From assembly GCA_964270895.1 (NCBI GenBank), contig OZ185440.1: 64,000 bases of DNA; one strand, given 5' to 3'. How positions within the stretch are numbered: the first letter of the stretch is position 1; each line of letters starts with the position of its first letter. Below the pieces are notes generated by a model. The model saw nothing but the letters and a program-made list of their open reading frames with translations. It did not search any database and was not told where the DNA came from. A program made the position numbers and the translations under genes. Positions 52,601-55,600 of this stretch are shown here, piece by piece. Source of the DNA: Podarcis filfolensis (Eukaryota).

Positions 52601-55600
52601 GTAGCAAGGCACTGACAAGCACAATGTTGCCGATGGTCTTGATAGCCACAAAAACACACTGTACTACGTGCTAGAGAGAGAAAGAGAGGGAGGTTGTGTT
52701 ATGTACTGAGTTGAATAGGATCCAAACTGCAGCAGTCTGATTGGTCCTAGAACAATAGGATCCAAAAGGCAGCAGTCTGATTGGTCCTAGAACAATAGGA
52801 TTCAGAATGCAGCAGTCTGATTGGTCCTAGAACAAGGCAGCAGTATGATTGGTTGGCAGGAACCACCCAATCATGCTCCAGATAGAAGTGAATCCACAAC
52901 CTGATTGGCTTACAGTAGAATTCCGGAATTAGCCAATCATGTGCAGCCCATTGTGTAAATAATGTATATAAAGCAGATACTTTGAGGGGACATTCATTCA
53001 TTCCTCCTCACCACTATGAGCTGAATAAAGAGCATGAAACCACTTTGCGACTCTGAGTATATTTCAGGTTGGTTAGATTTTATTTGTCCATTGCTCATTG
53101 TGACTTTTCTGAATAACTGCGGTCCAGCAAAATATAAGTAGAGATTGCTTTGCCTGGTTCATGCATACATTTCAATGCATGCTGCTGGCTTAGAGAGGTC
53201 ATCACATTTCCCTTACTATCCCTGATTTCTGGGTTATCCAGAAGAGGAAAACATTCCTACTACCCCACTCACCTTCAGCCCCTTTGCTCTGTTAATGGCT
53301 CTCAGTGGTCGCAGTACTCTGAGCACCCTGAGGATTTTCACTACTGAGATGGCACTGGACCTGTGGCAGAATATGAGGAAAACATTACAGTGGGAACCCT
53401 TATTGTGCTTATGTTACATGGATTCTGCCCTGCCTACAAAGAATGACTATGGCCTTTTGATTATATCTAGTGATTGAATGGGCCATTCCATGGTTGGGAC
53501 CATGAACCAGAGAATGCTGTAGGACTGCCTTGCTACCAGGGCAGCTTCAGAGAATTCTTCAGAAGGCAAAACCACTGCAGGGTGCATTCAGACATGCGGA
53601 ATACTGCATTGCCCTAGTTTTCCTGATTATAATGCTAGCACTTCTGAACCATTTTCTAACATTCCTTTTACAATGCAGTACCTCTTGTGTTATGGAACGA
53701 TGGCTTTTGGATAGATGTACGCTAAATTTCATTCACACCTGTGAGTGTGGAGTGACACAACAAAAAAACATCACTGGCCGATGTCACTACTCCCCCACCC
53801 CTTCCGAACATGTGTGCTTCTGTTCTCCCATGATTCCCCCATGAAAACAGCAGGAAATAGCTGCATGCTTGTACACTGTCCCAAATTTCCTCACTTTACT
53901 CCCAACTCTAGTTGGTACAACCAGCCACAGTAAATTACAGAACCAAAGAGCCTTTGAACGAGGGTGAGGCGACCATTGGAGGAAAAAGGCAGACCTTTGC
54001 AGCAACTAAGACTTTCACAACCCAGTCAGTAGGATCAAACTACAGGAGCCAATTGTACCTCCACTTCCGATGCAGTGGGGTGAGGGATAACTGTTTGACT
54101 CTCAGGGCACACCCACACCACAGACCTAAACTGGTTTAACAGCCACAGTGGCGTAGCGTGGGTTGTCAGCACCCGGGGCAAGGCAAGTAATTTGCGCCCC
54201 CTAACCCGTGGATTTGCGCCCCCTAACCCGTGGATTTGCGCCCCCTAACCCATGGATTTGCCCTAACCCCAGATGTTGCGCCCGGTGCGGCCGGCCCCCC
54301 CTGCACCCCCCACGCTACGCCACTGAACAGCCAATCCCTTTTTCCAGGGAACTCTGGGGATTGTAGCTCTGTGAGGGGGATAGAAATCTCTTAACACTTC
54401 CCGGTACTCTCAAGAAACTGCAGTCTACAGGAATCTTTGGAGAAAACAGTTAAAGTGGTATAAAATCAATGCAAATGTATAGTGTGGATGAGGCCTCAGT
54501 ATGTTAACTGATAATTATGGCTGTGAATATTCGTTGCTTTGGGAGCAGAGCTCACTACTCTTCATGGAGCTCCTAGTTTTCAGGGTCTGAGAGACGGTCA
54601 GCTTCTCTTTACAATGTTTTCCTTTATATTTCAGGGTGTTTCTTACTACACAGATACATCCCTCATATCCCACAGTTGCTGCCAAAGACACAAGGAGAAT
54701 GTTAACCCCTATCCTACTTCCCTCAGAGTTGGCCCTACCACAGATCGATGAAACCCAGGCCTGTTCTTCCATCACAATGCTTACTCAAATCCCATGGAGA
54801 TAAGAGAGACAGCCACAACGAGCAAGTCCAGGATGTTGAAATAGTTGCGGCAGAAGGATCCCTTGTGTAGGATAGCACCATAAGTAGTCATCTGTGGGGA
54901 GCAGGAAGACTCAGTTAGGCCCAGTTTTGTATTACTTTGAGGATACTTCTCTCAGCAGCCTAATTCTGTAAATCATTGGACCTGTGGATGTTGACTGCTG
55001 TGTTCAGGATGAAGCCGTTGTCTGAGAACGAGCGCTTCATTATCAGCACAGAGAGTTGGCAAGCTTGAATCTGATGCCCGCTATCTGTACAGGTGGTTAA
55101 CTATTCAGATTGCCAACTCAGCACAATGGAAAAAAGATGAAGAAGTAAACATTGCGATTTCCAGTCCCGTTTTATGATTCCATTGGAATTCCACAACATC
55201 TCTAAGTGTGACTCACCTTTAGAACGATTTCCACTGTGAACACAGAAGTGAAGCCAATGTCAAAATATCCTAGAATCTGGAGATAAAACAAGCAAAGAAA
55301 GAGGATGCTATTTTTGTCAGTGCAACTCAATTGCTATATTTACAAACATGTCTTTTAGCAAATTTGCTGGGTTCTGGAATGAGAACTATAGGAGAAATAT
55401 TGTCTGAATATTGATTAACAGAATCTCCTATTTCTTCAAGCTCATTTTGCAGTCTCCAGGTAGTCCCAGCTAAACCAGCATGAACAGTACTCTAAAAACA
55501 AATGATTGCAGAAATGTTTTTGGTCATCCCCAATATATTAAGATGCAGGCAGCTGTCATGTAAAAGCAAACCTGTTTTTCCTCTACATATTATTTTAGTT

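Follow-up and report, generated by a model that had tools for sequence, protein, structure and literature searches.

The minus strand of the window, by which we mean the whole 64-kb stretch of DNA that was analysed, carries most of CACNA1S, the gene of a muscle channel that is essential in mammals. Over 1,787 alignment columns, its exon chain is 97.1% identical to a named Podarcis alpha-1S protein, and alpha-1S is the best PDB match of the exon extending from 52670 to 52563; the host is accordingly a Podarcis-like wall lizard. In an exon map built from the window and the next 50 kb, with uncertain edges for exons 1-3, 29 and 39-43, this exon is the 22nd. The earlier note had given its length as 108 nt, and this value was recovered, with phase 0 at both ends. 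The encoded peptide, identical in the window and in the named Podarcis proteins, comprises what we take to be the S4-S5 linker and S5 of repeat III. Intron 21, which precedes it, is 602 nt long and contains a solo LTR whose nearer end lies 26 nt upstream of the exon (Table 1). Elsewhere in the gene, the donors of exon 30 (43268) and exon 37 (35115) were mapped as GC (GCAAGT) rather than GT. GC-rich repeats that comprise tandem units and have their ends in common are located at 54150-54330 of the window in intron 20 and at about 60250-61100 in intron 11, and a further multi-copy repeat occupies positions 53571-53878 in intron 20, where about 200 nt are absent from the contig of one of the organisms compared below (organism C).

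Table 1. Coordinates of the exons, splice signals and inserted sequences around CACNA1S intron 21; negative positions are counted from the exon 22 acceptor.
Feature	Position	Strand	Remarks
CACNA1S exon 22	52563..52670	-	108 nt, 36 aa, phase 0 at both ends; 22nd on the lacertid CACNA1S map
Polypyrimidine tract and TAG acceptor of the host	52671..52691	-	Untouched in the window; 15/15 pyrimidines before the YAG
Target-site duplication GGTTG, exon-proximal copy	52692..52696	.	Sequence
Solo LTR of a young Ty3/Gypsy family	52697..53066	+ (antisense to CACNA1S)	370 nt, TG...CA ends
Candidate replacement branch point ATAAC, LTR terminus	52698..52702	-	A at 52699, -29; prediction only
Second candidate branch point CTCAG	52706..52710	-	A at 52707, -37; nearest upstream AG; prediction only
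Predicted cryptic pseudo-exon in the LTR	52914..53020	-	107 nt, out of frame, stop in the incoming frame
Target-site duplication GGTTG, distal copy	53067..53071	.	Sequence; empty site in X5 and X8
Ancestral branch-point motif CTAAC	53072..53076	-	Branch A 53073, at -28 without the LTR and at -403 with it
CACNA1S exon 21, which provides the donor of intron 21	53273..53360	-	From the exon map

The proposal that a solo LTR has come to lie between the branch point and the polypyrimidine tract of exon 22 is confirmed by the ends of the element, by the GGTTG duplication that flanks it and by the existence of empty sites in two sequencing runs (X5 and X8). A TATA-like motif (52967) and an AATAAA motif (53024) place the LTR on the plus strand and, thus, antisense to CACNA1S, and three 40-nt repeats are found between 52714 and 52835. 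The family to which it belongs is both large and young, with 4,886 exact matches to the first 26 nt of the LTR genome-wide and 99-100% identity among 40 scored copies (including the one in the window) from a set of 197 first-look candidates. A perfect 5-nt duplication was found for 20 of 29 other copies; two of the 29 are followed by a TGGCG motif, which we take to be primer-site-like, and four are preceded by a purine tract. One copy with paired LTRs (L031) is about 4.95 kb long, and its two LTRs differ at 4 of 370 positions. In the pol region of this one element, Pfam identifies RVT_1, RT_RNaseH, Integrase_H2C2 and rve in this order, albeit in more than one frame, and the best PDB match of its reverse transcriptase is the Ty3 enzyme (E 3.9e-59, versus 1e-21 for gammaretroviral-type enzymes). 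Features of an endogenous retrovirus were not found: a scan of six of the 18 frames of L031 (all six from the plus strand) detected no env family, and retroviral reverse transcriptases score far below that of Ty3. The lizard element shares with yeast Ty3 the order of reverse transcriptase, RNase H and integrase, a Ty3-like reverse transcriptase and LTRs with TG...CA ends, but is distinguished by its length and its 5-nt duplication; its placement is to Ty3/Gypsy rather than to the level of a clade.

Other members of the family lie nearby. A second antisense solo LTR (28323-28690 of the window; 96% identical, with the duplication ATGCC) begins some 30 nt beyond the donor mapped for exon 42 (28721), the edge of this exon being approximate, and a third copy (L034, 6287-6656), which has the orientation of the gene, precedes CACNA1S exon 1 by about 7.6 kb. 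Read in antisense, the LTR start and the adjoining purine tract at the 3' LTR junctions of L031 (5060-5090) and other copies resemble a branch motif, a pyrimidine run and an AG, reminiscent of a built-in acceptor-like signal.

The history of the site was reconstructed from contigs of four of the 14 listed DNA-like runs, namely X1 and X2 (organism A), X5 (organism B) and X8 (organism C). In both organism B and organism C, a single contig jumps from 52690 to 53066, and the 375 nt missing there correspond to the LTR plus one copy of the duplication, leaving an exact empty site. The earlier note had taken the ancestral allele to carry CTAAC next to the target site, and the X5 contig does so, with eight differences from the window between 53066 and 53644 and none at this motif; the refutation that the note had allowed for, orthologues devoid of CTAAC, did not materialise. 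For X8, six of the 11 differences are listed, and an intact CTAAC is demonstrated only in X5. The contigs of the two organism A samples, which come from two studies, enter the LTR from both flanks without a fork; neither sample shows any sign of an empty allele, as far as can be told from contigs, which drop rare alleles. Both X1 (at 52644 and 52688) and X2 (at 52632) have variants of their own within 65 nt of the junction, placing the LTR on three or more haplotypes, which derive from at least two individuals. The insertion is probably common or fixed in organism A, as judged from a carrier sample of two in which X1 possibly represents the assembly's own individual, and its presence on differing haplotypes of both samples weakens the idea of a private or low-frequency insertion. 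The flanks differ from the window by 0.4% and 0.7% in organism A, by 1.7% in organism B and by 1.4% in organism C, and X1 is free of differences throughout 53042-53643, including the displaced CTAAC.

Additional variation was noted within the carriers. In X1, two nucleotides of the pyrimidine tract are deleted (52688-52689), which would shift the candidate branch adenosine to -27. Compared with 31 distinct other copies, the window LTR contains a single private change, at 53040 (A to G on the gene strand), which removes the A from a TGAT located 20 nt before a cryptic acceptor of the LTR (53021). Contig ends suggest that X2 does not have this change and instead carries another one near 53057, so that the former is probably not fixed; selection on it is unsupported.

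When recomputed, the positions of the branch-point motifs agreed with those originally proposed: the A of CTAAC is at -28 in the empty allele, that of the LTR-derived TAAC is at -29 in the filled allele, and the insertion has displaced the former by 375 nt. The description of TAAC as branch-like was correct only in part. The UnA triplet, which constitutes the core motif of branch points (Mercer et al., PMC4315302; here and below, statements on cited articles refer to the available parts of their texts), is present as TAA at -31 to -29. However, the full yUnAy motif fails, with an A instead of a pyrimidine three positions before the branch adenosine, and a second UnA, within CTCAG at -37, had been missed; it likewise deviates from yUnAy, with a G at +1. 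The adenosine at -29 (A-29) falls within the range of about 19-37 nt typical of branch points, as does the second candidate at -37, and it is located inside the AG exclusion zone, with the nearest upstream AG ending at -36. The median position of human branch points is 28 nt (PMC5959240), and an OGDH minigene was spliced upon insertion of UAA motifs at -28 or -41 (PMC7969005). Within CACNA1S itself, intron 11 has a native CATAAC at -20. Of the six core pairs with U2, ATAAC forms three and the ancestral CTAAC four. Register-anchored pairing with the genome's own U2 yielded -2.6 kcal/mol for A-29 and -0.7 kcal/mol for the ancestral CTAAC in a crude nearest-neighbour model, in which the better value of A-29 depends on a bulged helix; unanchored duplex energies were dropped because they ignore the register, and the anchored ones used in their place are still crude.

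To what extent does the motif at the junction exceed chance? As a null model, local genomic DNA was joined to the retained 26 nt, using 20,000 draws for motifs and 1,500 for U2 pairing. Between -18 and -40, TNA occurred in 76%, TRA in 42%, TRAY in 21% and CTRAY in 5.5% of these random junctions, and 20% of the 1,500 paired with U2 at least as well as A-29. Even the opposite orientation of the LTR would place a TTCAC at -27. The native comparison set comprised 35 other CACNA1S introns, after exclusion of intron 21 and seven introns with uncertain edges from a total of 43. In the same interval, yUnAy was present in 23 and TNA in 32 of the 35, three having neither, and eight introns paired with U2 as well as A-29. 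The branch-like motif at the junction is near chance level and, given how frequently UnA, TRAY and equivalent pairing arise at random, the presence of ATAAC does not show its use as a branch point. These findings also bear on the earlier claim that the insertion is tolerated thanks to the LTR motif. The apparent tolerance, reflected in the three or more haplotypes that carry the LTR, still stands, but the causal role of the motif is weakened by the high frequency of random UnA, the TTCAC in the opposite orientation and the 12 of 35 native introns that do without yUnAy.

A comparable picture emerges at the level of the family. Assuming about 4,200 host-flanked LTR starts and 150,000-200,000 introns, four to five family starts would be expected this near to true acceptors before selection, about one of them matching our search pattern. 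The genome-wide search returned 64 matches at 47 distinct sites, compared with 34-39 expected from background. Frames long enough to scan were available at 39 of the 47 sites (70 frames), and the Pfam cut-off was passed only at the CACNA1S locus, with weak matches below it at three others (L048, L049 and L075); the sensitivity of the search is low, as the pattern fits only 8 of the 35 true acceptors and Pfam frequently fails to recognise single exons. A single case such as this is what chance predicts, nothing points to a habit of the family, and with one recognisable coding exon among a near-background number of sites, recurrent landing of the family at acceptors is unsupported. Of the 64 matches, 18 (L084 and 17 further sites, on C19, C55 and C101) have the same LTR-flank junction and were counted as one site; they suggest that an LTR forms part of a repeated or duplicated unit.

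The sequence next to the tract shows no trace of later refinement. The first 11 nt of the LTR are invariant in all but one of the 31 distinct other copies, and the exception differs at base 1. The terminus in the window is the ordinary family terminus, and its adaptation after insertion was therefore rejected; the replacement is likely to represent an inherited end that happened to fit. Derivation of the host tract from the element's purine tract was also rejected, because the duplication separates the two and empty alleles have the host tract as well.

On balance, we think it probable, if far from assured, that exon 22 keeps its own acceptor and that U2 now branches mainly on the LTR-derived ATAAC and secondarily on CTCAG. 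The full-length element would have landed first, with the same LTR end already facing the tract, and would later have been reduced to a solo LTR by LTR-LTR recombination, an established route to such remnants. In this process, the strong tract would fix the acceptor, and U2 would take the nearest UnA in range, which is now provided by the LTR. Since the same end would have faced the tract ever since the full-length insertion, the replacement of the branch point would have been immediate. The insertion is probably tolerated. The stronger notion that the terminal eight bases of the LTR are the obligatory exon 22 branch point, fixed in one lizard lineage, is possible, though less likely than not. 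If true, it would imply fixation within about 1.5% divergence and provide a dated natural branch-point swap with sister lineages that keep CTAAC as controls. The anatomy of the locus is real, well dated and well controlled; the mechanism is likely, but its motif is at chance level. Nothing here indicates a new mechanism.

In principle, branching could instead be diffuse, spread over several nearby adenosines, such that TAAC is dispensable and almost any insertion sparing the tract is tolerated. The filled allele has ten adenosines from -24 to -42, among them those at -24, -25 and -27 in or next to the duplication and those at -29, -30, -32, -37, -41 and -42 in the LTR. In line with this idea, multiple branch points are the rule among human constitutive introns sequenced in depth (95%; PMC5959240), native CACNA1S introns can lack yUnAy or even any TNA in the relevant interval, and the tract of exon 22 consists entirely of pyrimidines. 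However, the human and mouse genomes are depleted of elements close to acceptors (PMC3088655), skipping results from a SINE located 15-16 nt from an acceptor in dog FAM161A (PMC3976383), and the retained 26 nt by themselves contain no TNA. Overall, we regard such a relaxed mode of branching as unlikely. It is highly improbable that the displaced CTAAC still serves the exon 22 acceptor across the LTR, from its present position at -403. Far-distal branch points exist in 4.6% of constitutive introns (PMC5959240), and both the window and X1 retain the motif without change, although the insertion is too young for this to carry any meaning. Distant branch points require an AG exclusion zone (PMC7969005), but 12 YAGs intervene here, beginning 20 nt from the motif, and CTAAC is not followed by a pyrimidine tract.

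Displacement of the branch point could also have produced a leaky, mildly harmful allele that spreads by drift, if some transcripts lacked exon 22 or gained a pseudo-exon from the LTR that is served by the displaced CTAAC. In the dog merle allele, a comparable displacement leads to the use of a cryptic acceptor (PMC7349775). In CACNA1S, 12 YAGs were introduced with the LTR, at positions from -383 to -36, and its acceptor at 53021 (12 of 15 pyrimidines), together with a GTAAGC donor at 52913, would define a pseudo-exon. However, loss of 36 residues from the membrane core should inactivate an essential muscle channel, and the lack of any sign of an empty allele in both organism A samples, as well as the retention of the exon in homologues, again speaks against a harmful variant, making this scenario rather improbable. 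The earlier suggestion of some exon 22 skipping is similarly unsupported: of 93 homologous proteins with exon 21 and exon 23 peptides, none of them known to come from a carrier, 92 keep the 36 residues, the single exception being a skink gene model (P0049). RNA runs from organisms D, E and F (contigs of X18 and X19, raw reads of X21 and X23) were uninformative, with about one read over exon 22 and no exon junction listed, and a description of exon 22 skipping was not evident in the literature searched. Branching mainly on the LTR-derived ATAAC, with the host acceptor retained, remains the reading that we prefer.

Insertions less than about 50 nt from an acceptor are usually purged, and the known examples disturb splicing. 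With several haplotypes that share it and close relatives in which the site is cleanly empty, the CACNA1S LTR represents a natural experiment on the minimal requirements of a vertebrate branch point and on whether a core splice signal of a host exon can be supplied by the ends of mobile elements. Neither this insertion nor the replacement of a native branch point by an LTR end is described in the literature that we searched, in the parts accessible to us, which mostly leaves aside subscription journals and comprises no supplements. In a survey of zones in which intronic elements are under-represented (PMC3088655), the survivors near exons are antisense and short, as is the CACNA1S LTR; this survey is mammalian and statistical, and the term branch point has no occurrence in its available text. 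The SINE in dog FAM161A (c.1758-15/-16; PMC3976383) likewise is an intronic retroelement just upstream of a constitutive acceptor, but it sits in the tract region and causes skipping and disease, whereas the CACNA1S LTR spares the tract and appears to be tolerated. Similarly, the merle SINE of dog PMEL (intron 10/exon 11; PMC7349775) is antisense and has come to lie between the branch point and the acceptor used originally. However, it supplies both a tract and a cryptic acceptor and alters the product, whereas the LTR would contribute only a branch-like motif and leaves the host acceptor in place. Further parallels are elements that contribute a branch point, or a competitor of one, from their own sequence. 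The branch point of MIR15 was mapped using MIR insertions in OGDH minigenes (PMC7969005), a CUAAU in inverted Alu elements serves as a mapped branch point of exonized Alus (PMC4315302), and element-derived branch points have been predicted for an F8 pseudo-exon (LTR78; PMC7951965) and for a MIR-Alu exon (PMC6822395). While these cases concern engineered introns or exons derived from the elements themselves, the CACNA1S LTR would, in a natural population, stand in for the native branch point of a coding exon that is old and constitutive.
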